Source: Candidatus Omnitrophota bacterium
Lineage (GTDB): Bacteria > Omnitrophota > Gorgyraeia > Gygaellales > JAHJCI01
NCBI GenBank assembly: GCA_042570305.1
Contig: JBHPGP010000001.1
Coordinates: 828-64,827 of the forward strand
Length of the DNA stretch: 64,000 nt
Reading direction: 5' to 3'
Shown: in pieces, positions 1 through 61,603 of the stretch
Layout of the letters: each line of letters opens with the position of its first letter
Position numbering within the stretch: position 1 is the stretch's first letter
Program-made: the position numbers and the translations under genes
Notes under the pieces: model-generated
What the model was told of the DNA's origin: nothing
Databases searched by the model: none
The model's input: only the letters and a program-made list of their open reading frames with translations

Positions 1-3000
1 GTATGGCATTTGAACCTGTTTCACCCTGAAATAATCCCCATACTTGCTTTATTTCTCCTGTATCCTTATCTATCTCCTGTATTGGCGCAAAGAACTTTGT
101 CTGAGCTGTGTCTAGCTCTGGATGTCCCGCAAGTAAGGTCTTTTGCCCCTCAATATATGCTTCCTTTGCTTCAGAATCCATTTTGTCTTCTAATGTGAAA
201 TATTCTAATGGAGCGCTAAACAGGCGGGGCTGAGAAAGCTGTTCATAGGTGGCTTTCTCAAGTTCTCCTTGCTGATTAAGAACATATGTTGTCTCTCCCA
301 TTATCCGATTAATTGCGTAATCGCCTACCAACTTCTTTGTTCCCAGCCAACCCGCACCTGCTGAGACGCTGCCTAGGGTAGCTCCGGTCCCCCAAGAGAG
401 AGTGCCCTTCAATAAGGTTTGCCCACGAGAAAGCGTTCCAGTAGGACTTGCTGCTGCTGGCTTTAGTGCAAAACGGCTGTTTATCCCTTTCATCGCTGCA
501 CCCAAAGTAAGAAAACCGCCGGCGCTAAAAGTTAACAGCCCTAGATTAGCTAGAACATTTCCTCCGATTGTGCCTTTTAAGCCATCATGGTGTGCTCCAA
601 AATAGTACATAGTTGCACCTGCGCCCATTACGCCTACACCCATTGCCCCCGCCTTTACCGGATTATCCTGAACAAACCTGCTTACTGCTTTTGCATACCT
701 GTTATTTGTAGCGAACTTAGTAACCGGTCTTAAGGCACTAAATGCTGTATTGAAGAGTACTGCTGAAGATGCAACAGAATCAAAATTATAGGCCAATCTA
801 TTTGCGGATTTGCCCAAAGCACTAAAATCTCCACCGCTGCCTAAAAGAGGCATACCTAAAGCAAAGGCTGTATTAATCGCAAGGAACTTTGGTGTAGTTG
901 CTATGGCCTTACCAACAAAGTTCATTGCCTTACCAACACCAGTGAGATTTCCACCAACCAGCGGAAAACCGCCATGGCCAAACTCACCTACCATAACAAA
1001 CCCATTAGAAGATTGTTTTATATGATGCATCCTGGCATGAGATTGTATTCCCTTGCCAACATCTCTAAAACCTGTTCCTGAACCAATTAAACTACCGAAC
1101 AAATAAGCCCATTCTGCAGGGCTGGCAGGCATTATCCCAGCTGCATCAGGGCTACCAGTGGTTATGTCGCGAAGAAGATTACCTAAAGCAAGAAGTTCTT
1201 GTAATGTCTCGGGGTGAAAAGCATTCAATACTAACCCGGGAGAAGCCAGATAAAATTTGGTTAATCCAAAGGCGTAGGAAGAGGCAACTCCAACCCCAAG
1301 TATACTATTGAATGATTGCAAGACTACGCCTGTTTCTATCTGGTCTAATTTCTTCACCCTTTCTCGCAAAGGAGTAATCCCTAAAACCTGCCTGCCGCCG
1401 GCCGTTGCGATATTATTCGCTAGCGACCTGACAAAAGAAGGCTGGTAGTAATCAAATTCATCTACTTTTCCATCTGCATTAATATCTAAATCCTTGTTAT
1501 CTATTATTCCATCCTGGTTAAAATCTTCAGTAGCCACTGTTGGAGGCTTTATTTTTAATGCGTCATATGCAGCATATGGCGTACTCAGGCTATAGTAAGT
1601 AATAAAGGATGTTTTTAATGGATGCTGCATTAACTTTTGCCCTAATCCTGGGAATGCTTTACCTACTAACCAACCTCCAGCATACCCCATTTTGCTCATA
1701 ATCACGTTGGGCGCCTTATAACCAAACCTAAACAAATTCCACGTAAATTTAGGAGGCGCGACCTTAATCGGCGGCGGGGCTGAGTTGGGTTTAAATGGTG
1801 AACGCATAGCTGTAACGCCGCCAAAAACTGCTCCGATTCCAAAGTGGATTAAATCTCCCTGCCAGCCAAGGTTATACTGTTCGGGCAGGCCGAATGAGGT
1901 TAAGTAGGTGCGGGTTGAGCCTGGATTTTCAGGATCCGGTACATCGAGTAGAGGAGTAAGGCGACCTCCGGCAAGACCAACCGTACCATAAAGAAGCGAG
2001 GAACTTCCCACTTTCGCCAGTGTGCCGGAAGTCCCAGCCAACGCAGAACTAAATCTGGGAATAAACTTGAATCCCGCACCTATCGTAACGGCTAAAGCAG
2101 CTCCTGTCCCAAAATCAACCCCTGCCTGTTTCCAGCTGTAGGGCATACCCCGGAATTGGCTATCCAGGTATCCCCTGCCAACGCCTATAGTACCGCCCGT
2201 ACCTGCCATAGCTGCCCATTTAGCGCCTTGATAAACTACTGGATGAGCGCTGGCAAAAGATGCGAGCCTGCTTGAGTGGACAACTGAATTAAGACCCCTG
2301 CTCACAAGGCCTAGCCCCTTAAAGCCGACTGTCATCAATATGCCCGTCATCATAGACTGCATGGCAATTTGTCCGGACTGCTGAGGGGACAGACCTTGCC
2401 CATTACTCATTGCATTGGCCACAAGCAGGTTCACTCCTGTCAAGCCAACGCCGGTTAACAGTGCCCTTGATGACAGGCTGGCCGTCGTTGTCAATATGCT
2501 TGCAGTCCGGGAGGCTGTAGCAGCGGTTGTTGTACCCATTAACCTTAATGCGCCTGTTGCTCCAGCTCCCACAGCACACGTTCCTACAACCAGCGCTACT
2601 GTAGCAAGGTCTCCATAAGTAAAGTGGTTGGTGCTACTTCCTACCGTTGCTGTTCGCGGGTACTTCATTTCCCAGCTCAATCTTGAGAAAACCGGAATGC
2701 CCTCTCCCCATCCAGGCCTTGATTTCATCATATTATCGCGCAGTTTTTGATACGAGGATTTGGGATATGTATAGCCTCCAACAATAGTTCTGGTCTGCTT
2801 TTCGGAAAGCTTGCCTATCTCTATTCCTTTAATCTCCTCTCCGATAAGGAGGAATCCGCTGACTTCAGTAATCAGCGCGATCTTGGGAATAAATTTCTCT
2901 TCTCCCTTTTCCTGATAATAGATGCCGTCTTCGGATATTCCGGTAACATAGACAAAGTGGTCGGAATTAAGGTGTGCAATAAAAGGAATTAATTTATTGG

Positions 3001-3883
3001 TTGGTTGGTTGATGAGCTGACTGGGCAGCAGCTTAACCGGGTAGAGCTTAAGCCCTAATGACTTGGCTACCTCGCTTAATGCAAAAAAGGATGTTTTAAG
3101 CTTGCCTTTTAATTCCTTAATATTGCCGGTAAGCAGGTCAACCAGTATAACCCGCAGGGCTAATTCTTCTAACGTTATATCTATCTTATTGTACTGCAGA
3201 ATGTTATGTAAAGCATAAACGCCACAGTAATTGTCTATCTGGGTTGATGGTTCCCTTAACCATTTGTAAATCTTCTTAATAAGTGGGTAACTAATATAGA
3301 GGCTGTCTGGGCGTAACATGCTTTTACTTAAATAGAACGGCACTCCTCTTGGCCAATAATCAACAAACTTCCGGCCATGTTTGACAATATCCACTATTGT
3401 CTTTGCCGGTGCCTGGCTTTCGGCAATCTCCTTCTCTGACCTGCCATATGATATGGAAAACTCCAGCAGCCTGATTATGCTATTTAAGGATAATTCCATG
3501 CCCTTCATTACCTGAAGGGATATCTGGTCATAATAAGGGTTTAACCACCACGACGGAATATTCTCATTTGGATCCTGCGTTAAGGCATTAGAGTGATTCG
3601 GCGTCGGGGTATCTACTACCAGATTGGAGGCGATCTCAACCCGCTGCAAGGGTTTCTCAGCCAAGAAATCAAGAGAGCGGCGCACGTTCTCGGCAACAAA
3701 ATTAGCCAGATACCCTGTTTGCCCTGAACCAAGATAATAGCGCGGAGCCCAAAGCACGCTGGGATCATAACCCATTGCCCAGGCTGCCTGTTCAGGGACA
3801 AAAACAATCACCACCAACAAGGCAACTGCCCTTATCCAGCGCTTGAATTTTGACTGAGTTTCTTGTTTAATCTCTTCTTTCAT
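1..3883 (-). CDS. Giant membrane-anchored protein, 3' end outside the window (at least 1294 aa). Has an N-terminal signal-anchor, a papain-like/C39-like cysteine peptidase domain, a long Gly/Ala/Thr-rich hydrophobic region and tandem EF-hand-like Ca-binding loops.
   Basis: Absent from the supplied ORF track because it has no stop codon inside the window. Hand translation from the ATG (complement of 3881-3883) gives MKEEIKQETQSKFKRWIRAVALLVVIVFVPEQAAWAMGYDPS... I checked it codon by codon for 3883->2701 and 1561->1441 without a stop. No minus-strand ORF is listed below 3616, consistent with one open frame to base 1. Motifs: NYCGVYALHN (Cys codon 3224-3226) and NSDHFVYV (His codon 2957-2959). 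Confidence 0.8.
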   Translation of the reverse strand, partial: MKEEIKQETQSKFKRWIRAVALLVVIVFVPEQAAWAMGYDPSVLWAPRYYLGSGQTGYLANFVAENVRRSLDFLAEKPLQRVEIASNLVVDTPTPNHSNALTQDPNENIPSWWLNPYYDQISLQVMKGMELSLNSIIRLLEFSISYGRSEKEIAESQAPAKTIVDIVKHGRKFVDYWPRGVPFYLSKSMLRPDSLYISYPLIKKIYKWLREPSTQIDNYCGVYALHNILQYNKIDITLEELALRVILVDLLTGNIKELKGKLKTSFFALSEVAKSLGLKLYPVKLLPSQLINQPTNKLIPFIAHLNSDHFVYVTGISEDGIYYQEKGEEKFIPKIALITEVSGFLLIGEEIKGIEIGKLSEKQTRTIVGGYTYPKSSYQKLRDNMMKSRPGWGEGIPVFSRLSWEMKYPRTATVGSSTNHFTYGDLATVALVVGTCAVGAGATGALRLMGTTTAATASRTASILTTTASLSSRALLTGVGLTGVNLLVANAMSNGQGLSPQQSGQIAMQSMMTGILMTVGFKGLGLVSRGLNSVVHSSRLASFASAHPVVYQGAKWAAMAGTGGTIGVGRGYLDSQFRGMPYSWKQAGVDFGTGAALAVTIGAGFKFIPRFSSALAGTSGTLAKVGSSSLLYGTVGLAGGRLTPLLDVPDPENPGSTRTYLTSFGLPEQYNLGWQGDLIHFGIGAVFGGVTAMRSPFKPNSAPPPIKVAPPKFTWNLFRFGYKAPNVIMSKMGYAGGWLVGKAFPGLGQKLMQHPLKTSFITYYSLSTPYAAYDALKIKPPTVATEDFNQDGIIDNKDLDINADGKVDEFDYYQPSFVRSLANNIATAGGRQVLGITPLRERVKKLDQIETGVVLQSFNSILGVGVASSYAFGLTKFYLASPGLVLNAFHPETLQELLALGNLLRDITTGSPDAAGIMPASPAEWAYLFGSLIGSGTGFRDVGKGIQSHARMHHIKQSSNGFVMVGEFGHGGFPLVGGNLTGVGKAMNFVGKAIATTPKFLAINTAFALGMPLLGSGGDFSALGKSANRLAYNFDSVASSAVLFNTAFSALRPVTKFATNNRYAKAVSRFVQDNPVKAGAMGVGVMGAGATMYYFGAHHDGLKGTIGGNVLANLGLLTFSAGGFLTLGAAMKGINSRFALKPAAASPTGTLSRGQTLLKGTLSWGTGATLGSVSAGAGWLGTKKLVGDYAINRIMGETTYVLNQQGELEKATYEQLSQPRLFSAPLEYFTLEDKMDSEAKEAYIEGQKTLLAGHPELDTAQTKFFAPIQEIDKDTGEIKQVWGLFQGETGSNAI

Positions 3884-3915
3884 ATCTTATTGCTGCACAA
3901 AAAGTTACATACTCT

Positions 3916-4048
3916 AAAATCTCAGCGGGTTAGTGCTCCCCCGCGGCCTTCGGTAGCCTGGCTTTTTCCGATTCTGCATCGGGAACCCATGGCTTTGCGC
4001 GCCCCTAACTCCTTAGGTGTCAAGGGTTTGCCTTTTCGATGCCGTCAC
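3916..4048 (-). promoter_or_regulatory. Candidate c-di-GMP-I (GEMM-I)-like riboswitch in the 5' leader of the giant-protein gene
   Basis: The minus-strand RNA reads ...AAAAGGCAAACC-CUUGACACCUAAGGAGUUAGGGG-CGCGCAAAGCCAUGGG...GCCGCGGGGGAGCAC... GGCAAACC (4025-4032) and GCGCAAAGCC (3991-4000) flank a hairpin. From memory, these resemble the GEMM-I core (GGCAAACC...GGGACGCAAAGCC). The element ends in a GCGGG/CCCGC hairpin followed by GAUUUU. It lies in the 210-nt TadC-to-giant-ORF spacer. Confidence 0.5.
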
Positions 4049-4093: not shown

Positions 4094-4957
4094 TTAAAAC
4101 TTAAGGAATCCGCCACGCGTAAACTGAATTAATATTGGCCCGGCCACAACTATCATAACCACCGGCAAAATAAATAACAGCAAAGGCGCTAAAAGTTTTA
4201 TCGGCGCCTTTAATGCCATTTCCTCGCCTTTTTGAAACCGGCGCATTCTTATCTCTTCTGACTGCATCTTTAATGTTTCTCCAATTGGAGTTCCCATACG
4301 GTCTGCCTGCAGCAGGGTGCGCACAAAAGAAATCATCTCCGGGCTGTTTATCCGGTTGGCCAAATTCTTTAATGAGTCGCGGCGGGAGCCTCCCATCTTT
4401 ATCTCGTGAATCAAAACCTTAAGCTCATCAACCAGGACGCAGGAACGGAACCCCTCAACCACGCGATTGACTGCCATCATAAAATCTAACCCGGCTCCTA
4501 CGCAAATATTTAAGAGGTCGATAATGTGCGGCAAGTCCTTTAAAACCGCAGCCTGCCTTTTCTTTATTTTACTGTTAATCCACAGGTCCGGGACAAAGTA
4601 GCCAACGCACAAAGCCAAAATGAGCATAAGCGGTTCTGGACGGAATATAATGAATACCACAAAAGGCACAGATGCCATCGCCGAAAATTTAATCGCCAGG
4701 AATTGAGCAGCCTTCATCGGCCTGCCTGCGGAGACCAACTTTCTCCTCAAGTTCTCCATAGGAATATGGACTCTTTCCAGTAAGCGTTCAGTAATCTGCG
4801 TAGGAAAACTCAAGATGCTCCTGAATCCAGATGCAGAATGCGCATCTTTAATCTCTTCCGGCAGGTGCAATCCGCCAGCCAGGCTGCGGGAGGAGAACTG
4901 ATAAGCCAGCAACCCGATACTGGAAAAGAGAAATGCGGAAATAAGCAATAGTTCCAT
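4094..4957 (-). CDS. tadC: Tad pilus inner-membrane platform protein TadC (T2SS F-family domain)
   Basis: 287 aa with TM segments and a T2SSF-type core (GLDFMMAVNRV...MGGSRRDSLKNLANR...LLQADRMGTPIGETL...). Directly follows tadB. Confidence 0.85.
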   Translation of the reverse strand: MELLLISAFLFSSIGLLAYQFSSRSLAGGLHLPEEIKDAHSASGFRSILSFPTQITERLLERVHIPMENLRRKLVSAGRPMKAAQFLAIKFSAMASVPFVVFIIFRPEPLMLILALCVGYFVPDLWINSKIKKRQAAVLKDLPHIIDLLNICVGAGLDFMMAVNRVVEGFRSCVLVDELKVLIHEIKMGGSRRDSLKNLANRINSPEMISFVRTLLQADRMGTPIGETLKMQSEEIRMRRFQKGEEMALKAPIKLLAPLLLFILPVVMIVVAGPILIQFTRGGFLKF

Positions 4958-4959
4958 AT

Positions 4960-5811
4960 TTACACCTCAACCCGGCTTAGTTTCTTGATTAAGATTACTC
5001 CGATTATTTCCGAAGCAACTGCCCACATCAGCAAGCCTTGTCCGAGTTTATCCTGCAGCATTATCTTAAAATTTTCCGGATTAACAAAATAGATAAAAAT
5101 TCCGAAGGCAATGGGCAATAAGCCCATAATTACTCCCTGCAGCCTGCCCTGGACTGTCAATGCTTTTACCCGGTCTTCCAGCTTCTTTTTCTCTCTTATG
5201 GTGGACACCAACTGGCTAAATATCTCGGTCAGGTTTCCTCCCGTCTCCCGGGAAATTCCGATAGCAGTGGTGATTAAATCCAGGTCATCCACAGGCATGC
5301 GTTTCTTAAGATGGGCCAGGCACTCCTCCAGGGCCACTCCCATTTGATTCTCTCTCATTACCAGGGAGAACTCATCGCTAATCGGTGGCGGCAATTCCTC
5401 TGCCAGCACCTCAAAGGACTGGTTTAAACTCATGCCTGCCTTAAGCGAACTGGAAAGAAGCATCAGCCCGTCAACCAGCTGGCTGCTGAATTGATTTCGC
5501 CTGCGCCCAGAAATAGTCCTGATGATTGTCGGCGGTGCGGCCAAACCAAGAAGCAATCCCGCAATAAAACCAATGGGATTGCGCATAAGAATCAGCCCGA
5601 GCAATCCCAGGCTTAATGGTACAATCATAAATATTTGAAATAGCTTGCGTTTCTCCGTGAAGATAAACATCCTGTCCAGCTGTTTGGTTACCTCGTGCAT
5701 GCGTATTTCTTGAATCTGAGAATAACGCTTCAGCAAAAGCGGAATTAGCTTAAAGGCTAAAAATACAACCGAGGCAAAGGTTAATAGAAAAATAATGCTT
5801 TTTAATACCAT
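4960..5811 (-). CDS. tadB: Tad pilus inner-membrane platform protein TadB (T2SS F-family domain)
   Basis: 283 aa. T2SSF-like core (LKAGMSLNQSFEVLAEE...AIGISRETGGNLTEIFSQL) with TM helices at both ends. Confidence 0.85.
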   Translation of the reverse strand: MVLKSIIFLLTFASVVFLAFKLIPLLLKRYSQIQEIRMHEVTKQLDRMFIFTEKRKLFQIFMIVPLSLGLLGLILMRNPIGFIAGLLLGLAAPPTIIRTISGRRRNQFSSQLVDGLMLLSSSLKAGMSLNQSFEVLAEELPPPISDEFSLVMRENQMGVALEECLAHLKKRMPVDDLDLITTAIGISRETGGNLTEIFSQLVSTIREKKKLEDRVKALTVQGRLQGVIMGLLPIAFGIFIYFVNPENFKIMLQDKLGQGLLMWAVASEIIGVILIKKLSRVEV

Positions 5812-6014
5812 TATCTCTCCCAGACTAAAGGTTTATCACCACGGGGCAGCTCGTATTGCCGGCCAAAACCAAAGACATCGGCTGATTGGCGCCAACGGCT
5901 ACATACTGCCCGTTTAATATATATCTGGATTCCCAATAACATAGCAATAACTACTGCTAACAACACAGTATATTCAATAAACGAAATCGCTTTTAAGTGT
6001 TTGCTTTTCATCAT
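5811..6014 (-). CDS. Flp-like pilin/pseudopilin (divergent, A instead of G before the xxxxEY motif)
   Basis: 67 aa. N-terminus MMKSKHLKAISFIEYTVLLAVVIAMLLGIQIYIKRAV shares the IEY + hydrophobic helix + Q.YIKR motif with the upstream pilin array. Confidence 0.6.
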   Translation of the reverse strand: MMKSKHLKAISFIEYTVLLAVVIAMLLGIQIYIKRAVCSRWRQSADVFGFGRQYELPRGDKPLVWER

Positions 6015-6015
6015 C

Positions 6016-8196
6016 TTACCTGTGCCTTTTCTTTATATAAATATCCTTGGTCCTTTTAGCAGCTTCGCCAGGAAGCTCATCGGGTTTATAAGTATACCCC
6101 GGCCCGTAATGAAAGGTTGCCTTGGCAACTATCCCGTGGTTCATGGCCAAATTCACCAATCTGGCCCTTGGCGTATTCGGGTCAGAAGGGTTGCCATACG
6201 CAAGTAATTGCTCCAGCGTTGTTGCGTCTCCGTTATTAAGAAAAGCCATGAATCTGTCGGCAGTAGGCCGCAACAGGTTTGTTACATCTGCGTTTTCAGC
6301 AAGCGCCGCATTACGGCGGAATCTGAATCTCCAGAAATTACTCAACGGGCCACGCTTGGCTAAATCCTCATCATAGCGGGCAACTGTAAGGTCAAATTCC
6401 TCCTCTGCCCATTCTATCCTCTGACAAATCCTGAATCCCCAGTTACGGCGCTTCACTGTAAGATAGGGCAATTTAAAATCTTGCGGCACATCTAATCTAA
6501 CATAAACCATATGCGCGGGGCTTTCTTTCTGTACTGTATTGCTAAACTCGTCCAAAACTACATCCTTCCAAACATAAATAGCCTCGTGAACCCATGGCTC
6601 GTCTTTCCTGCTTGCTGCCTCAAGGGCTACCTCGTTAATCCTTGTGCGAAGGCTCTCAATACTTTCTTGCATTAGTTGAAGGCGCGCGATAAAGGGCGGA
6701 ATGATAGTATTGCGATTACTATCATTGTTACAACCACAGTTATAATAGTTATCGCAAGCTGCCGATGCACAGATGCCGCCACCGGAACAATACCGCCCCA
6801 TGGCGCAATTCTGAATATAGAGAGGGCAAGCGCTGCTGCAACATCCCCTTACACCGCCGGTAGGGGTATTGCAGCTATTCTCAACCAAACAACTCGATGA
6901 ACAAAGCTGACAACAGCCCCTGCCGCCGCCGCAGCCAGCGTAAGCATCACACACGCACCACCATGAATATTCATCGTATTCCACGTGCCCGGCGCAACAA
7001 CCTCCGCCGCCCGGACCGCATGTCCAGGGGCCGGGAGACGAACAGCTGTTTACGCATGCAAGTATCTCGTTTTGCCTTTGCGCTAATTGAGCAATCCAGC
7101 CTTGCAACATTGCTTCCCACTCCAGCATATGGTCATACCAATCCTTGAAGTCATCGGTCGGCGCTTTCAGATCATCAAACTGATTCATCCAAGTCTCAAA
7201 ACTGCCAACGAGATCTTCCTTGCTGGTATTATAAATACCCTTGGCAAATATCTCAAAAAGTCTTATGTCTCTGTAAAACTGGCCCAGTTCGTCATTCTCG
7301 TAGTCGCCATTATCCGGGTCCGCAGGATCAAAGAAAGTCAAATCTTTTGTGTAATCATCCGCAAACTCAACTCCGTAGCCATGGCTCCATAACCGCACAA
7401 TAAAGGATTTAAATTCGCCTGCCAGCCAATCAGTTATTCTCCAGTTTCCATTTACCAACAAATGAACGCTATGAGCATCCCCGGTCTGGGGAACCGGCAC
7501 AATATGAAATTGAGGGCTGCCAAATAGGTATTCATAAAAATCGTCAACGAGGTCTCCTATGCGCGGCAATGAATCCAGTCTCTGGAAATACCAGTGGTTA
7601 AACCGGGAAATCTTATCTAATGTGCCGGGGAATTTATTTCCGTCTCTGTCCGCATCAAATCTATCCGGCACCAAGTCCTGGTCAGTGACCGTAGCAAAAA
7701 GCGCAAATTGAATTGCTGCCTCTGTAAGCCTCTGTTCGGTAGACATATTCTGAAATTTCTCTTTCAATGCCTGAACCAGCTGGGGGTCAATATGGGCTGC
7801 GCTAATACCTTCGGAGACTAAAAACCCGCCCGTAGCCCCTCCCATGACCAGTCCGAGTGCCACCTGGGCAATCAATGGTCCGGTAATTGCGCTTGCGGTA
7901 GCAAGGGTACAAATTGTTACTACGATTGAGGCAATAATTATTAAACATCCTATAATCAATGACCAATTAAACTCGCAAGATTCAATACTATCGCCCCACA
8001 TTTCCATCTGCTGCTTTATCCCTGTAGCCATACTGCCCAGCCCCGAGGCAAGCAAAAGACCTGCTCCGTCACAGGCATTATCAATGGCTGTCTTTTTCTG
8101 GGCTATCTGACCTATATTTATAGTAACCACAATAAACAGGAATATGGCTGCGATGGCTAAAGTGATTATAGTCGCAATCTGCGCCCTTTTTGCCAT
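6016..8196 (-). CDS. TadG-like pilus-associated protein with an internal Cys-rich module
   Basis: 726 aa. The N-terminus (AQIATIITLAIAAIFLFIVVTINIGQIAQKKTAIDNACDGAGLLLAS) resembles the TadE/G-like 'Tad' N-terminal domain. 22 Cys occur within 109 residues, encoded at 6730-7056. Confidence 0.65.
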   Translation of the reverse strand: MAKRAQIATIITLAIAAIFLFIVVTINIGQIAQKKTAIDNACDGAGLLLASGLGSMATGIKQQMEMWGDSIESCEFNWSLIIGCLIIIASIVVTICTLATASAITGPLIAQVALGLVMGGATGGFLVSEGISAAHIDPQLVQALKEKFQNMSTEQRLTEAAIQFALFATVTDQDLVPDRFDADRDGNKFPGTLDKISRFNHWYFQRLDSLPRIGDLVDDFYEYLFGSPQFHIVPVPQTGDAHSVHLLVNGNWRITDWLAGEFKSFIVRLWSHGYGVEFADDYTKDLTFFDPADPDNGDYENDELGQFYRDIRLFEIFAKGIYNTSKEDLVGSFETWMNQFDDLKAPTDDFKDWYDHMLEWEAMLQGWIAQLAQRQNEILACVNSCSSPGPWTCGPGGGGCCAGHVEYDEYSWWCVCDAYAGCGGGRGCCQLCSSSCLVENSCNTPTGGVRGCCSSACPLYIQNCAMGRYCSGGGICASAACDNYYNCGCNNDSNRNTIIPPFIARLQLMQESIESLRTRINEVALEAASRKDEPWVHEAIYVWKDVVLDEFSNTVQKESPAHMVYVRLDVPQDFKLPYLTVKRRNWGFRICQRIEWAEEEFDLTVARYDEDLAKRGPLSNFWRFRFRRNAALAENADVTNLLRPTADRFMAFLNNGDATTLEQLLAYGNPSDPNTPRARLVNLAMNHGIVAKATFHYGPGYTYKPDELPGEAAKRTKDIYIKKRHR

Positions 8197-8450
8197 TATT
8201 CATATCCTCCTTGATGGAAAACATTCAAATCAGGCTGGCGTCTATAACAACTACCGTCTTTGCAATAGAAATTTGATTTACCCGGGTCGTTTTTGCTGGT
8301 TGCAACCTCACGGGTGTCTTCGTACGCCATTTGGCGCTTCACTATATTATGATTAATCCAGACAAACAGGTTGCAGGTCAAGATAAGGAATAATATCGTG
8401 CAAACAAACGCAACGCTAAACTCAATGCTTGCCTGGGCCCTGGAGTTCAT
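8196..8450 (-). CDS. TadE-like minor pilin
   Basis: MNSRAQASIEFSVAFVCTILFLILT... is a TadE-type N-terminus. The ATG at 8448-8450 overlaps the upstream stop (ATGA), so I prefer it to the track start at 8465. Confidence 0.6.
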   Translation of the reverse strand: MNSRAQASIEFSVAFVCTILFLILTCNLFVWINHNIVKRQMAYEDTREVATSKNDPGKSNFYCKDGSCYRRQPDLNVFHQGGYE

Positions 8451-9619
8451 TTTCTTGCCTCCCAAGTAAATTTCTCGTTATCCGGACTGAATTCAGTGGT
8501 GGTATGAACAGGGTCTATTATTAACCCATAAGCAGGGTTAACTCTAGACCAGCCATTGGGTTTATTTAATCTTATTATGTGCGTAGCCCTCTGCCTTGCG
8601 TATACATTGGTGAATGAGGATATCGTACTGTCGTCTTCTGTTTTAGTCAAGTAATTATTCCTATTTTCTTTAACCAGGGTGTAAGCATTAAGCAGGCCCT
8701 GTTGCTCATCGAGCAATTCCCCGTCAAAATCCCGGTCCTTATCGTGCTCCCAGGTGCTAACCGCAAGATATCTATTATCCAGCTCGCCCTCCTGATAATC
8801 TACATATTTAAAACTCTGTATTCTGCCGCAGTAACCATTTGCATCGCAATCCCCGGTTCCCTCCTGAGTGCCCCTCACGGCAATGATCATTTCCTGCTGC
8901 CCGTCATAGTCAAGGTCAGCAGAGGATATTTTATGCTTTGGCTTCCCTGCCCCCTCTCTGAAATAGGCAAATTTTTTGTCAGGTTCTTCATCCGGGCTTG
9001 TGCGGTTTTGCACAAAGATTTGGTTGCAGGCTACCCAGCGCTCTTTAAATTGTTCTAAATCTGCGGCTCTTTCAACAGGAGTTTTTTCAAAAACCACCAT
9101 TATTGAACCACCGCAGACGGATTCGCGGTAATCCGCTGTTGTAAATGCGCCGTGGCTATAATTAATCCCTTCAATTGCCCCATCTGCCAGCTCTCTATCA
9201 GTTAAGCCTAAGGTATCGTTAATCTCGATTATTTGCAGCGGAAGATCAGAATCTACGGGGATTTCGTCATAATCGTCTATATAAAGTGCATTTGTGTTGC
9301 TGTCCCAGGTTACTGCTCCTCCGCCGCTTATTGGCGTGCGGTCAGCAAAACCCCAGGGGTCATTAGGATCGGGTATGCCTTTATCCTTTATGGTTGTCAT
9401 AGAAACGGTTGCGCCGGGTCCGGATTTATAAAAAGCCGTTTTCATTGCCTTGCGGAAAGACTGCATGACAGTATTTTGCTGATAATTTGCATGCATGCCG
9501 TATTGCAAAAGCATAGCCAGGCACAACAGCAGTATTGACCCGAAAGAAGCCAACTCCACCAATGATTGTCCCTTTTTATTATTCAAATAATTCATCCGGA
9601 AACTCCCCAAGCGTTTCAC
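8447..9619 (-). CDS. Large pseudopilin/TadE-TadF-like protein
   Basis: 390 aa. N-terminus ...NNKKGQSLVELASFGSILLLCLAMLL is a pilin-like leader plus hydrophobic helix, followed by a ~340-aa soluble domain. The start is uncertain: an internal Met sits at 9595, and the track start overlaps the upstream gene by 41 nt. Confidence 0.55.
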   Translation of the reverse strand: MKRLGSFRMNYLNNKKGQSLVELASFGSILLLCLAMLLQYGMHANYQQNTVMQSFRKAMKTAFYKSGPGATVSMTTIKDKGIPDPNDPWGFADRTPISGGGAVTWDSNTNALYIDDYDEIPVDSDLPLQIIEINDTLGLTDRELADGAIEGINYSHGAFTTADYRESVCGGSIMVVFEKTPVERAADLEQFKERWVACNQIFVQNRTSPDEEPDKKFAYFREGAGKPKHKISSADLDYDGQQEMIIAVRGTQEGTGDCDANGYCGRIQSFKYVDYQEGELDNRYLAVSTWEHDKDRDFDGELLDEQQGLLNAYTLVKENRNNYLTKTEDDSTISSFTNVYARQRATHIIRLNKPNGWSRVNPAYGLIIDPVHTTTEFSPDNEKFTWEARK

Positions 9620-9932
9620 TGCTTACTCTGCGTAGTCTTTCATTTCCCGTTACAGAGGTTGTTCTGATTCCAAAAATCTTTCCCTCTTCTGCCAGCTGGG
9701 GCGCTGAAACCTCTACCTGCCGCGATATGGTTGTGGTTGTCCCAGACTGAAAAATACTCATTACGGAATTAATATGGCCAGCATCGTATTGCCCGCCTAT
9801 TGTATCAGCCGCCTCTCGCAGCCTTCCCTGTGCGGCTCGCTTTACATAATGCTGCATAAGCAGCAGGGCAGCAGATAAGCAGACCACAAGCATGGTATAT
9901 TCAATAATTGACTGTGCTTTTTTATTTCGCAT
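9579..9932 (-). CDS. Extended Flp-like pilin paralogue
   Basis: MRNKKAQSIIEYTMLVVCLSAALLLMQHYVKRAAQGRL... has a Flp-type xxxxEY N-terminus and the shared MQxYVKRxxQGR motif. Confidence 0.65.
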   Translation of the reverse strand: MRNKKAQSIIEYTMLVVCLSAALLLMQHYVKRAAQGRLREAADTIGGQYDAGHINSVMSIFQSGTTTTISRQVEVSAPQLAEEGKIFGIRTTSVTGNERLRRVSSETLGEFPDELFE

Positions 9933-9934
9933 AT

Positions 9935-10408
9935 TTAATAGCTGTGTTCAGGCGTGTTTGGCCGAGTAACCTGGTCGTATTCCATTTTCTGAAAAGCTTC
10001 ATTATTCCTAATCATAACGCGTGTATTTTCATCAATGCGTGAAAAATGCCTGCCTTTCGTCCAGTTTCTTGTTAAGTTAGTATTGTCGAAATTGCTTAAG
10101 CTCATGGAAGGGATAGGAGGACCAAACTCCTCATCCACATTATCCTCTATGCCTATTTCCTGAATGCGCTGGGCACGAAGCTCACTTTTCCTTGCCGTTA
10201 CTTCCGAGACACTCAATCCCGGTCCAAAAGTCATATTCTCGATATAATCAGGTATAAAGCCAAACATTCCTAAGTTATCCACCGGCTCTTTTATCACTAC
10301 CTGAACCCCGCGCTGGATATAAAGGTTGATTGCCAGCAGCAGGGAGCTAATCACCCCTATAACAATCGCGTATTCAGAAACATTTTGAGCTCTCTTGTTA
10401 CTAATCAT
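9935..10408 (-). CDS. Extended Flp-like pilin paralogue
   Basis: MISNKRAQNVSEYAIVIGVISSLLLAINLYIQRGVQ... with a 157-aa body. Confidence 0.6.
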   Translation of the reverse strand: MISNKRAQNVSEYAIVIGVISSLLLAINLYIQRGVQVVIKEPVDNLGMFGFIPDYIENMTFGPGLSVSEVTARKSELRAQRIQEIGIEDNVDEEFGPPIPSMSLSNFDNTNLTRNWTKGRHFSRIDENTRVMIRNNEAFQKMEYDQVTRPNTPEHSY

Positions 10409-10754
10409 AACAATCTATCTCCTGGATACTGAGGCCGCCCCTGACGCTTTCGCCAGCAAAGTCGTCAAGCGAGCCGGAAAAAGCTATTCGTTGCCGTCCG
10501 TCCGTGTTTACCACAACATCAATTTCTCTGCCCTGTTCGGCTTTGGAATACTCGTGAACATAGTATGGCTCGTACTGGGTTATTGGCCGGGCGGAAGAGG
10601 GAGAGACCTGCCGGGCTGTTCGATCTACTAAATCAGCGTAACGACCCTGCAGGCCTCTCTTGACATATGACTGTATGGTTATCATCGCAAGTATAATTAC
10701 AGCCACGCAAATGGTGTATTCACTAACGCTTTGTCCTCTTCTCGGTATTCTCAT
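10401..10754 (-). CDS. Extended Flp-like pilin paralogue
   Basis: MRIPRRGQSVSEYTICVAVIILAMITIQSYVKRGLQGR... It shares the QYEPYYV motif with the 11126-11500 product. Confidence 0.65.
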   Translation of the reverse strand: MRIPRRGQSVSEYTICVAVIILAMITIQSYVKRGLQGRYADLVDRTARQVSPSSARPITQYEPYYVHEYSKAEQGREIDVVVNTDGRQRIAFSGSLDDFAGESVRGGLSIQEIDCYD

Positions 10755-10787
10755 AATCGCCTTAACAAGGGTTGCTGGTTTAAGCTT

Positions 10788-11105
10788 TTACTTGCTATAC
10801 AAATCCTCGTCCTCTGCCCATGCCTCAACAGATTCTGAGCCTGTTCTTGAGCTTACCTGAGCAGCCGTATGTTCTGTCCTGCCCACGCGGTCATGTACAG
10901 ATTGCTCAACCTCTGACGACTGAGTGATTGAAAAATTGCCCGTATAAACAGTCGGGTCATACTGGTCACCCATATCATCAGAAGCGCTTTTTAATCTGCC
11001 GGCAAAACCGCGTCTTACATAGTGCTGCATAAGCAAAAGACCAGCCACCACCACAGCAATAATTAAGGCATATTCTAATGTACTCTGGCCCTTACGGTTA
11101 AACAT
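10788..11105 (-). CDS. Extended Flp-like pilin paralogue
   Basis: MFNRKGQSTLEYALIIAVVVAGLLLMQHYVRRGFAGRL... A GGAGG Shine-Dalgarno sits upstream. The 5' end is identical to that of 11126-11500. Confidence 0.7.
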   Translation of the reverse strand: MFNRKGQSTLEYALIIAVVVAGLLLMQHYVRRGFAGRLKSASDDMGDQYDPTVYTGNFSITQSSEVEQSVHDRVGRTEHTAAQVSSRTGSESVEAWAEDEDLYSK

Positions 11106-11125
11106 TTCTTTTCACCTCCTCAATA

Positions 11126-11500
11126 TTAGCGGCCCGAATCATAATCGTCTCTGTGATAATCATCATCCCATGTTGTCTCATCATAGGCTCCGACCTGACG
11201 TGTTGTCGACTCGGCAATAGCTGTACGATCCGTTTCACCGCGCGCTGCAATGTCTTCTGTGAGGCTCCTGCTGCTTCCAACAGTACCTTCTGAATCAACG
11301 TAGTATGGCTCGTACTGCTTGGTAGTAAACTCTATATTTGCTCCTCCTAAAACTCCTGGTGTTGGAGCATGGTCAACAGCATCTGCTACTCTACCCTGAA
11401 GACCCCTTTTTACGTAAACCTGCATTGCCACTGCTGCGGCAATTACCAACGCAATAAGTATTGAATACTCCGCAATATTCTGGCCCTTACGGTTAAACAT
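11126..11500 (-). CDS. Extended Flp-like pilin paralogue
   Basis: MFNRKGQNIAEYSILIALVIAAAVAMQVYVKRGLQGRV... with a GGAGG Shine-Dalgarno. Confidence 0.7.
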   Translation of the reverse strand: MFNRKGQNIAEYSILIALVIAAAVAMQVYVKRGLQGRVADAVDHAPTPGVLGGANIEFTTKQYEPYYVDSEGTVGSSRSLTEDIAARGETDRTAIAESTTRQVGAYDETTWDDDYHRDDYDSGR

Positions 11501-11527
11501 TTCTTTTCACCTCCTCATTTAAAGATT

Positions 11528-11698
11528 TCAATCTGGCAACCTGCCAGCTGCGCCTTCAATAGACCCTTTAGATTCCGTGAAGACTGTGTCTACTGCGGTC
11601 GGAAGAAACGTCCTTGCCGCAACGACAACTGCAGCTATAATTGCCGTTAACACAATCACATACTCCAACACGCTCTGGCCCTTTTTTTTCCTGCGCAT
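11528..11698 (-). CDS. flp: Classical short Flp pilin (56 aa), below the ORF-track cutoff
   Basis: Hand translation gives MRRKKKGQSVLEYVIVLTAIIAAVVVAARTFLPTAVDTVFTESKGSIEGAAGRLPD*. ATG is the complement of 11696-11698 and the stop is at 11528-11530. GGAGG lies about 10 nt upstream. It carries the G/xxxxEY Flp processing motif. Confidence 0.75.
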   Translation of the reverse strand: MRRKKKGQSVLEYVIVLTAIIAAVVVAARTFLPTAVDTVFTESKGSIEGAAGRLPD

Positions 11699-11740
11699 AT
11701 CCATTCACCTCCTTTCGCTTTCCGATCTTAATATATATAA

Positions 11741-11887
11741 TTATTGCGGCTCAGCATTAATCTGGTCCTGAATCAGTTTAAAATTCGCCTGCACTGCTCG
11801 CTGTACATAGAGATGCATGGCCAGGAATGCCGCTGCCACAATAGTAATTAGTAATGCGTATTCAATTGTGCTCTGCGCTCTTCTCAT
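11741..11887 (-). CDS. Short Flp-like pilin (48 aa), below the ORF-track cutoff
   Basis: Hand translation gives MRRAQSTIEYALLITIVAAAFLAMHLYVQRAVQANFKLIQDQINAEPQ*. Its ATG overlaps the stop of the upstream gene (ATGA at 11884-11887). Confidence 0.65.
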   Translation of the reverse strand: MRRAQSTIEYALLITIVAAAFLAMHLYVQRAVQANFKLIQDQINAEPQ

Positions 11888-12090
11888 CTTAGCATATCGT
11901 CGACTGCTTGGTCAAAGGCATCATTGCAAATCTCTTTTATGCCCGGACGCTCACCGGGTCCGGGATTCGGATTGGTAAAGAATTTGCTTTTAGTAAAAAA
12001 CAAAACGATTGCCACTACGGAAATCGTTAATATACAATACTCGAATATTGACTGACCATGAATACTTTTATTAATCTTTTTAAAAGTCAT
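11884..12090 (-). CDS. Flp-like pilin, first gene of the pilin array
   Basis: MTFKKINKSIHGQSIFEYCILTISVVAIVLFF... has a G-QSxxEY motif. GGGAG lies upstream of the ATG. Confidence 0.6.
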   Translation of the reverse strand: MTFKKINKSIHGQSIFEYCILTISVVAIVLFFTKSKFFTNPNPGPGERPGIKEICNDAFDQAVDDMLR

Positions 12091-12227
12091 TATTAACTCC
12101 CAAATAAAAAACCGGCGCTACCGTTTCGGCAGCCCGGTTACAACATAAATTCCACAATAATTTTTCCCGTGGCTTTGCTATCCCCTTGTCTTGCTTAAGG
12201 GAACAACCCTTGTCGTTCGGCAGTTAA
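12091..12227 (-). promoter_or_regulatory. Structured ~135-nt leader of the pilin operon ending in a terminator-like hairpin plus U-run (possible riboswitch or attenuator)
   Basis: The minus-strand RNA contains an AAGGG-UUGUU-CCCUU hairpin (12197-12211). It also contains GGGGAUAGCAAAGCCACGGG (GCAAAGCC at 12171-12178), similar to the 3991-4000 core. A CCGGGCUGCCGAAACGGUAGCGCCGG hairpin (12112-12137) is followed by UUUUUU (12106-12111), about 15 nt before the GGGAG SD and ATG. Confidence 0.5.
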
Positions 12228-12256
12228 AGTATAACATAGGTGCAAGATGCTGTCAA
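12228..12256 (-). promoter_or_regulatory. Sigma70-type promoter of the pilin operon
   Basis: On the minus strand, TTGACA (12251-12256), a 17-nt spacer, then TATACT (12228-12233). Confidence 0.7.
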
Positions 12257-12287
12257 GCTCAAAATTAGGGGCATAGAAAGCGTTTTC

Positions 12288-13169
12288 TTAGGGCAGGTTT
12301 TTTGGCAAAATTTCCAATTTTGCATCCACCAGAACCAGTTCTTTTTCCGGACTGAATACTCGCAGGCTGTTTATCTTTTCAGCGGCATACAACAAATCCT
12401 CATGCCAGACAGCGTCATTCATCCAAGGAGAATGCTCAGGACAGAAGAATTGAACCTCTAAAAGGCCGTCTGTTTTCTTGAAATTTGCCCATAATGCATA
12501 GAAACGCTCCTGCATAGCAGGCAAACCCAGGTATTGGTATGAATGAGGAAAGAAATTTGTCTGAGCATAGGAGCTTAATTCTAAAAGGCATTCTTTATGT
12601 AACTCATTGATTTTGTTAATGTTATGGCTAAAATTAGCTCTCATTAAAGCATTATTTATCGCAGCAATTTTAATGTTTGCTAATTGCTGCAAATACTGGC
12701 TTATGCAGCCAGGAGACACTTCTTTGCCAGTAAACAGCCAAAGGCTTTTCTTATCTTTAAAAAAGGGCATATAGAGTGCGGTTTCGATTAGTGTTTGCAG
12801 GTCCTGCTCAGACCAGCCAGGAAAATAAGCAAAAAGGCCATTTGCGAGAATAGAGGTCAAGCTGAGCTGAAAATCAGCTATTTTTAAGAAAATAATGCCG
12901 CCGTACTCAATAAACACCCTTTCTTTACTGATCAATTTTATCTCAGCCGGAGCACTAAAAGCAGCCTGTTGTTTCCTGCTTCTTCTTCCTACTGGACTGC
13001 TTAAATTACTCTGTTTAATTACGCTATTTATTAATGATTTTGACAGGCTTACCTGGAATTTCTCCCTAATCAGCGGAATTAATCTTCTGCAGGATAATTC
13101 CGGACTAGCCTTCTTTTTCTCAATAATAAAGTCCTTAATTACGTTACTTAACTTGTAAGAACTGGTCAT
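12288..13169 (-). CDS. Hypothetical protein with an N-terminal helix-turn-helix-like segment
   Basis: 293 aa. The N-terminus (SPELSCRRLIPLIREKFQVSLSKSLINSVIKQSNLSSPVGRRSRK) looks like an HTH followed by a basic linker. I recognise no family for the rest. Confidence 0.35.
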   Translation of the reverse strand: MTSSYKLSNVIKDFIIEKKKASPELSCRRLIPLIREKFQVSLSKSLINSVIKQSNLSSPVGRRSRKQQAAFSAPAEIKLISKERVFIEYGGIIFLKIADFQLSLTSILANGLFAYFPGWSEQDLQTLIETALYMPFFKDKKSLWLFTGKEVSPGCISQYLQQLANIKIAAINNALMRANFSHNINKINELHKECLLELSSYAQTNFFPHSYQYLGLPAMQERFYALWANFKKTDGLLEVQFFCPEHSPWMNDAVWHEDLLYAAEKINSLRVFSPEKELVLVDAKLEILPKNLP

Positions 13170-60939: not shown

Positions 60940-60998
60940 TAATTACTTTAACTTGAGTCCTTTAAGCCTGACCCGGCGAGGTCGGCAAGGAGTAATCA

Positions 60999-61603
<605 letters not shown>

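Follow-up and report, generated by a model that had tools for sequence, protein, structure and literature searches.

A divergent c-di-GMP-I-like leader as a probable riboswitch of a Flp-like pilin operon in the Omnitrophota

The RNA leader that precedes the first pilin-like gene of a Tad-type locus in an Omnitrophota genome is probably a transcriptional ON riboswitch, with a sensor that we read from sequence comparison as a divergent, periphery-reduced form of the c-di-GMP-I (GEMM-I) fold that has most likely kept c-di-GMP as its ligand. The earlier note on this DNA had described a transcription-attenuating, riboswitch-like leader and possibly a divergent GEMM-I, a proposal now backed by an alignment to Rfam models, the scores of homologous leaders, covariation, and a reciprocal match obtained with a model (R1) built from the leaders. 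If this reading is right, c-di-GMP riboswitch control extends to the Flp-like pilin/Tad locus of the Omnitrophota, an uncultured phylum about whose gene regulation next to nothing is known. Standard Rfam annotation misses the element at every locus examined (no family in Rfam 15 captures these leaders), and a literature search returned no paper linking c-di-GMP riboswitches with Omnitrophota or with Tad or Flp pilins. The leader also constitutes a natural experiment on GEMM-I, with its pocket fully conserved and the peripheral contacts that are indispensable in Vc2, the reference aptamer of Vibrio cholerae, gone; it could show a minimal scaffold for c-di-GMP recognition, or reveal a change in specificity.

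Promoter, leader and pilin operon

The window, by which we mean the whole 64-kb stretch of DNA analysed, comes from a Candidatus Omnitrophota MAG, and the 293-aa protein encoded 5′ of the leader corresponds to NCBI ACFL1D_00075 (100% identity). The leader is framed by the following features:

12288–13169, minus strand: gene for the 293-aa protein, which adjoins the riboswitch promoter at 33 metagenomic and five genome loci
12251–12256, minus strand: −35 hexamer TTGACA, kept in all 27 aligned loci
12228–12236, minus strand: extended −10 element, TG-T-TATACT; ATGTTATAYT is conserved in the homologues
12097–12101, minus strand: Shine-Dalgarno sequence GGGAG; GGAG is conserved, and the sequence is free in both predicted folds
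11884–12090, minus strand: first gene, a 68-aa Flp-type prepilin-like ORF (…HG/QSIFEY plus a hydrophobic helix), identified by motif and context
4094–12090, minus strand: presumed regulated operon, delimited by gene spacing only

On the minus strand TATACT (12233–12228) is preceded by TG (12236–12235), and a spacer of 17 nt separates it from TTGACA; no other promoter-like site between 3000 and 14000 scores as high (11 of 12 matches). The earlier note had read TTGACA-17-TATACT at 12256–12228 on this strand, with a leader of about 135 nt before the ATG and a GC-rich hairpin (12112–12137) plus U6 ahead of the Shine-Dalgarno sequence; all letters and positions of the promoter hold, the hairpin is present and is also reported by a terminator scan, and transcription would start near G12221, 7 nt 3′ of the −10 element, giving a leader of about 131 nt up to the ATG at 12090. 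The terminator ends about 20 nt 5′ of that ATG. A further proposal, an AAGGG/CCCUU hairpin, stands in part: CCCUU (12201–12197) and the downstream AAGGG (12187–12183) are borne out as partners within the 11-bp helix P2, and pairing with the upstream AAGGG is rejected because this alternative is absent from the homologous leaders. The predicted folding energy of the leader is −51 kcal/mol (z = −4.5 against dinucleotide shuffles), and none of 200 shuffles is equally stable.

Gene order in the operon is nine ORFs with a G/XXXXEY motif, then ORFs of 390 aa, 726 aa (TadE/G-like) and 67 aa, then two T2SSF (TadB/TadC-like) genes, with intergenic gaps of at most 36 nt or overlapping ORFs. The G/XXXXEY motif (Flp-type, class III signal peptide) with its hydrophobic helix is confined, within the 64 kb, to these nine consecutive ORFs. 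None of the pilin-like ORFs matched a Pfam or NCBIfam family, Flp included, and the Flp-like pilin call therefore rests on motif and gene context; the TadE/G-like match of the 726-aa ORF is weak. An ortholog of the 68-aa gene lies 3′ of the leader at all homologous loci, and the first ~25 nt of this gene (12088–12064, minus strand, AUGACUUUUAAAAAGAUUAAUAAAA) show nucleotide conservation across loci as strong as that of the leader core, which may reflect a constraint on translation initiation. We also note that the 726-aa protein (6016–8196, minus strand) joins its TadE/G-like N-terminus to an unusually Cys/Gly-rich middle (CGPGGGGCCAGH…CGGGRGCCQLCSSSC…).

Homologous leaders and the c-di-GMP-I clan

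Homologous loci were gathered independently of the RNA, by way of the adjacent 293-aa gene, using a query alignment of 24 protein homologues with 43–59% identity. This retrieved 33 metagenomic and five GTDB loci, nearly all labelled Omnitrophota. A complete leader is present at 26 of the retrieved loci and in the window (n = 27), with a common promoter, leader, terminator, Shine-Dalgarno sequence and first gene. Across these loci the adjacent protein is 39–59% identical, and the promoter, aptamer core and terminator hardly vary; such near-invariance in 26 further loci, set against the divergence of the neighbouring protein, indicates that the leader features are more than chance. A search through the first pilin protein for more distant cases yielded three matches only, on tiny contigs.

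Individual loci show departures of their own. At Ga0315288_10000009 (L008) the copy at 4934–5034 is degenerate: it has lost the entire P2 hairpin (ACCGAAAACAAAGCCACGG), and UCA stands in place of the pocket CCG; its terminator is retained by compensatory changes (GCUUUC…GGGAAG) with U6, and it scores only 23.3 bits with R1. At Ga0102851_10572852 (L025, ~798–940) the start position of the first pilin gene reads ACT, not ATG, and the U-tract of the terminator is broken (UUAAAUUUU). L018 has no pilin leader 3′ of its 293-aa homologue; upstream and on the opposite strand (1688–1774, minus) it has a true c-di-GMP-I-GGC element, which exceeds the gathering score of 59 with 63.2 bits.

At Rfam gathering thresholds there is no match at 12091–12256, nor does any pilin leader at the 15 longer loci reach a gathering score. 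A sensitive scan of 12000–12350 against 4227 Rfam families (E ≤ 10, a lower-scoring overlapping match of the same clan being suppressed in the output) aligned RF03167, c-di-GMP-I-GGC, over its full model at 12124–12217, with 22.3 bits (local E 0.0042; gathering 59). Of the two models that the earlier note had proposed to run with cmsearch, RF01051 belongs to the c-di-GMP-I clan (CL00126) thus aligned end to end below threshold (its own score for the window leader lies under 22.3 bits; gathering 35), and RF01786, c-di-GMP-II, gave no match at E ≤ 10 in 12000–12350. Eight of 13 homologous loci scanned sensitively match the clan at the same position, with 26.9–32.2 bits for RF01051 and 24.6–35.6 bits for RF03167, all of them under the respective gathering scores of 35 and 59.

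The covariance model R1, built from the leaders only, scores them at 72–105 bits (93.1 for the window leader). In a scan of the window it found nothing beyond this leader and a canonical GEMM-I element (3943–4045), matched over the full model length at 39 bits (E 3e-8); the RF03167 element of L018 is matched at 30.4 bits. The homology between the leaders and the GEMM-I clan is therefore reciprocal, since Rfam models align the leader and R1 finds bona fide members. A variant-core pattern gave nine matches in viral contigs, which we attribute to chance because all of them lie in GC-rich, coding-looking DNA and none matches R1.

The canonical element itself (3949–4042, minus strand) scores 41.8 bits against a gathering score of 35 and keeps both C44 and G83, and the string GGGGAUAGCAAAGCCACGGG of the leader (12185–12166) resembles its GGGGCGCGCAAAGCCAUGGG, a parallel that the earlier note had drawn. 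It lies (3943–4045, minus strand) directly after the TadC-like gene ending at 4094, in the same Tad locus, and precedes an ORF of >1295 aa (1–3886, minus strand, start near 3880) that runs off the window; it may act as a riboswitch for a giant surface protein, located inside the Tad operon or immediately behind it.

Alignment to these models divides the leader into the following parts:

12117–12224, minus strand: whole aptamer domain, a divergent c-di-GMP-I-like three-way junction (Rfam alignment, R1, RNAalifold)
12218–12223, minus strand: P1 outer 5′ strand CUGCCG, partner CGGUAG at 12123–12118 (covariation)
12214–12215, minus strand: P1 inner 5′ strand CG (Vc2 C13-G14), partner at 12128–12127; paired in 26 of 27 leaders
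12208–12213, minus strand: J1/2 ACAAGG, its last base the invariant G12208 (Vc2 G20), aligned to AAaGG of RF01051 and RF03167
12177–12207, minus strand: P2 hairpin GGGUUGUUCCCUU / AAGGGGAUAGC, 11 bp and a 9-nt loop, with no C44 bulge (fold, covariation, RNAalifold)
12174–12176, minus strand: J2/3 AAA (Vc2 A47, A48, A49), invariant, aligned to GCAAAGCC of RF01051
12167–12174, minus strand: P3 5′ strand AGCC(A)CGG with bulged A12170 (alignment, pairing counts)
12138–12166, minus strand: P3 distal loop, A/U-rich, variable in length and sequence in the leader alignment
12131–12137, minus strand: P3 3′ strand CCGGGCU, also the 5′ base of the terminator stem (both fold models)
12129–12130, minus strand: J3/1 GC, with invariant C12129 (Vc2 C92), aligned to UGCCG of the Rfam models
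12118–12128, minus strand: P1 3′ strand, consisting of inner CG, AAA (Vc2 A95 region; also the terminator loop) and outer CGGUAG (pairing, RNAalifold)

Positions G12208, A12176–A12174 and C12129 are invariant in 27 of 27 leaders, as are G12127 and A12126–A12125 in the A95 region, and the first strand of inner P1 (C12215-G12214) is kept in at least 90%. The roles of G20, A47–A49, C92 and the A95-region positions in the Vc2 pocket have been described (PMC3764141).

In comparison with GEMM-I (RF01051, with Vc2 as the reference) the leader has the same three-way junction and the same helix order. Common to both are J1/2 AAAAGG with G20, J2/3 GCAAAGCC with A47–A49, the P3 base AGCC(A)CGG/CCGGGCU, the G-C92 of J3/1, and the CG/CG of P1 followed by A95-like adenines, as well as the association with pilus or adhesion genes. 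The differences lie in the periphery. GEMM-I has an internal loop in P2 (A23–A25 / G42-A43-C44, with conserved C22, A23, A25, G42 and C44), whereas the leader has UUA/UAG pairs there, its P2 base reading G-C, U22·G45, U23-A44 and A/G24-U43; the position of C44 is thus a paired A and there is no C44-G83 pair. The GGCAAACC half of GEMM-I, which the earlier note could not find here, has its explanation in this replacement of GGCAAACC/GGGACGC by an uninterrupted Watson-Crick helix. A12138 occupies the G83 position, an A in 25 of the 27 leaders; in L025 the base there is a G, together with an AG to GA swap at the P2 base, a possible single case of tertiary covariation. The internal loop of P1 (AA/AAA) is larger than in GEMM-I and doubles as the terminator loop.

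The tetraloop-receptor contact of GEMM-I, in which a type 1 GNRA tetraloop on P2 docks into a receptor in P3, is likewise missing: the leaders contain neither a receptor hairpin in P3 nor a conserved GNRA tetraloop on P2. Canonical type 2 members of GEMM-I also lack this contact. P2 loops in the leaders are variable (4–26 nt) and A-rich (e.g. AAAA in L002), P3 distal loops measure about 14–33 nt, and kissing complementarity between the two loops as a substitute tertiary contact found no support (mean z −0.36). In Vc2 the tetraloop-receptor and C44-G83 are the two long-range contacts, and G83C or C44G/G83C abolishes detectable binding (PMC11705072). Because C44-G83 is missing and G83C abolishes detectable binding in Vc2, binding of c-di-GMP by the scaffold of the leader is not guaranteed.

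RF03167 is the best-scoring Rfam model for the leader and aligns over its full length (22.3 bits against a gathering score of 59), with a genuine member in the related Omnitrophota locus L018; its consensus GCGAAGCC, however, has a G at the A47 position, where the leader keeps GCAAAGCC. Among characterized systems, Cdi-2-4 (c-di-GMP-II, pilA1, Clostridioides difficile) and Bc2 (class I, cap, Bacillus thuringiensis) are ON switches (PMC6366702). The logic predicted for the leader is like theirs, with termination in the unliganded state and read-through into pilin or adhesin genes with c-di-GMP. The aptamer of Cdi-2-4 is of another class (RF01786), which has no match in the leader, and Bc2 is canonical class I; both are from Firmicutes and concern type IVa pili or an adhesin, whereas the leader belongs to Omnitrophota and to Flp-like pilins of a Tad-type locus.

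Two folds and a proposed switch

The 3′ part of the leader contains a second structure, which overlaps the 3′ strand of P3:

12112–12137, minus strand: intrinsic terminator hairpin CCGGGCUGCCG-AAA-CGGUAGCGCCGG, 11 bp with one bulge and an AAA loop, −17.8 kcal/mol (scan, covariation, RNAalifold)
12106–12111, minus strand: U6 tract; about 23 of 27 homologues have a run of at least five U, and L022 and L025 have a broken or weak tract

Alignment columns 110–130 are used both by P3/P1 and by the terminator, and the two folds are mutually exclusive. The covariation analysis of homologous leaders that the earlier note had recommended supports the three-way-junction aptamer and the terminator alike. 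For the aptamer model (outer P1, inner P1, P2 and P3), 95.5% of the cells in the 27 leaders are paired, as against 24–44% when the partners are slid, and there are two-sided changes at seven pairs, six of them in P2; in that helix 97% of cells are paired and six of nine aligned pairs show compensatory changes. In outer P1, columns 8–127 and 9–126 are invariant C-G pairs, and column pair 10–124 is G-C in 19 leaders and A-U in eight; these eight form two separated groups in a clustering of the neighbouring protein, and the competing terminator pair in them only turns to G·U. P3 is fully paired at AGCC/GGCU, three pairs being invariant and column pair 70–115 being G-C in 23 and G-U in four leaders. 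The outer three P3 pairs are kept in 19–27 of the 27 leaders, with column pair 74–112 mismatched in eight, and columns 110–112 covary with the terminator and not with P3. In the terminator, 94.2% of cells are paired, with compensatory changes at four pairs.

RNAalifold, run without a supplied structure, returned P2 and the terminator for the full leaders, and the GEMM-I three-way junction (outer P1, inner P1, P2 and P3) for leaders cut before the lower 3′ strand of the terminator. Because covariation supports each fold and RNAalifold returns one or the other according to the 3′ extent, we conclude that two mutually exclusive folds are both conserved. The terminator state is the minimum free energy (MFE) fold in 17 of the 27 leaders, and in 26 the aptamer state is the less stable of the two, the difference being 0.6 to 27 kcal/mol. 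This preference suggests that termination (OFF) would be the unliganded default, and since secondary-structure energy favours the terminator, antitermination would have to be kinetic, or be achieved through ligand and tertiary energy. Two further pairings were considered and set aside: one between the 5′ end of the leader and the Shine-Dalgarno region (in the MFE fold of the window, and by eye as UUCCUU/AAGGAG in one clade) differs in register between clades and is left out of the mechanism, and a CCACGG/UUGUGG hairpin of the window MFE fold lies within the variable P3 loop and is not conserved.

These observations can be assembled into a switching scheme, in which we infer the transcription start, the identity of the ligand, the ON direction and the extent of the operon. 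A strong sigma-70-type promoter would start the RNA near 12221 and P2 would form first; P3 (AGCC(A)CGG with CCGGGCU) and a split P1 (CG/CG, the AA/AAA loop and CUGCCG/CGGUAG) would close the three-way junction, whose bases would be those that touch c-di-GMP in Vc2 (G20, A47–A49, C92 and A95). The 3′ strands of P3 and P1 (12137–12118) would then also supply the 5′ half, the loop and the upper 3′ half of the terminator. With no ligand the local 11-bp hairpin and U6 should win, ending transcription some 20 nt short of the start codon. Ligand would lock the junction and keep the internal CUGCCG engaged in P3 and the pocket, leaving CGGUAG to the 5′ CUGCCG; the terminator would be blocked and RNA polymerase would read into the Flp-like pilin/Tad operon. 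As the Shine-Dalgarno sequence is free in both folds, control would be transcriptional. The repeated CUGCCGAA(A)CG to which the earlier note had drawn attention fits this scheme, as CUGCCGAACG (12223–12214) and CUGCCGAAACG (12132–12122) would be two competitors for one 3′ strand. Such an expression platform would be unusually compact, with two copies of one sequence competing for the terminator 3′ strand in a clear case of strand-exchange switching. The regulon logic matches, in that a canonical GEMM-I in the same Tad locus and the known c-di-GMP ON switches at pilin and adhesin genes would both fit. On the opposing side, no GGDEF motif was found in the 64-kb window, and L008 has kept its terminator with the aptamer destroyed.

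Alternative readings and the neighbouring gene

Other accounts of the leader invoke a different ligand, control by a protein, or a constitutive leader, and we give them lower odds, since the letters that never vary are precisely those of the c-di-GMP pocket. The same GEMM-I-derived fold and terminator logic could serve another cyclic dinucleotide, pGpG or a related nucleotide, if the rewired P2 base (U22·G45, U23-A44 and no C44-G83) reshapes the pocket. We think this improbable, although the receptor pair of the A49 A-minor contact is U·G and not C-G, GEMM-I variants with altered pocket letters form Rfam families of their own (RF03167), and U22, U23, A24 and their partners are almost invariant though Watson-Crick paired, which suggests a sequence-specific role. 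The direct-contact positions G20, A47, A48 and C92 nevertheless keep their c-di-GMP letters, and a pilus and adhesion regulon fits c-di-GMP. Known specificity switches act at these positions, G20A for cGAMP and the GGC consensus GCGAAGCC replacing GCAAAGCC, and so work through exactly those that the leader retains. A somewhat better, if still low, chance attaches to a related idea, that the leaders form a distinct GEMM-I subclass without either P2-P3 contact (C44-G83 and tetraloop-receptor), in which some novel arrangement would hold the pocket together; the A conserved in place of G83 might, for instance, dock on the P2 base with its invariant U·G, U-A and A-U pairs. Ligand specificity might be altered, or binding might be much faster and of lower affinity, to suit a terminator whose fate is decided over a few nucleotides.

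That the aptamer-like fold is a relic or an RNA-protein platform, in a ligand-independent or protein-controlled attenuator with read-through set by a protein (e.g. the 293-aa protein) or by transcription speed, seems to us quite unlikely. In its favour are the constant adjacency of the 293-aa gene, the conserved inverted repeat GAAAnCGnTTTC near −60, the terminator that L008 retains without the aptamer, and the lack of tertiary contacts that Vc2 needs; but the invariant positions are, beyond the helices, precisely the ligand-pocket nucleotides of GEMM-I, and a relic would not keep its pocket fixed across lineages in which the neighbouring protein is 39–59% identical. Nor does the 293-aa protein have a recognisable RNA-binding fold, its weak Pax-like HTH match pointing to DNA. 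Least probable of all, and by our estimate very unlikely, is an ordinary leader without switching, in which the hairpin would serve only for mRNA stability or for ending transcription of the upstream gene. In its favour, the window leader and the RNAalifold consensus both take the terminator as their MFE fold. Against it, a constitutive 11-bp hairpin and U6 would shut the operon off, standing as they do between a near-consensus promoter and the sole gene downstream of it. Covariation also shows that a second fold, incompatible with the first, has been conserved, and one of its compensatory pairs joins the 5′ end to the terminator 3′ strand. A divergent c-di-GMP-I sensor coupled to the terminator is thus the reading that we prefer.

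The 293-aa protein matches no Pfam or NCBIfam family. AlphaFold places a three-helix HTH-like domain at its N-terminus (model pLDDT 84.5); a comparison of the model with the PDB gave no whole-protein match with E < 0.1, the N-terminal domain matching a Pax paired domain weakly (E ~1.4) and the remainder matching nothing. Right after the stop codon of its gene is the inverted repeat GAAAACGCUUUC (12276–12287, minus strand; consensus GAAAnCGnTTTC), about 60 nt 5′ of the inferred transcription start and followed by an A/T-rich AATTTT just before the −35 hexamer. The consensus is kept at nearly all homologous loci, including L018, which has no riboswitch leader, and the repeat may be a transcription-factor operator or an UP element. 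Elsewhere in the window, the model of the PyrR binding site (RF00515) aligns over its full length to 60955–61062 (plus strand) with 43.6 bits (E 0.011), below its gathering score of 54.
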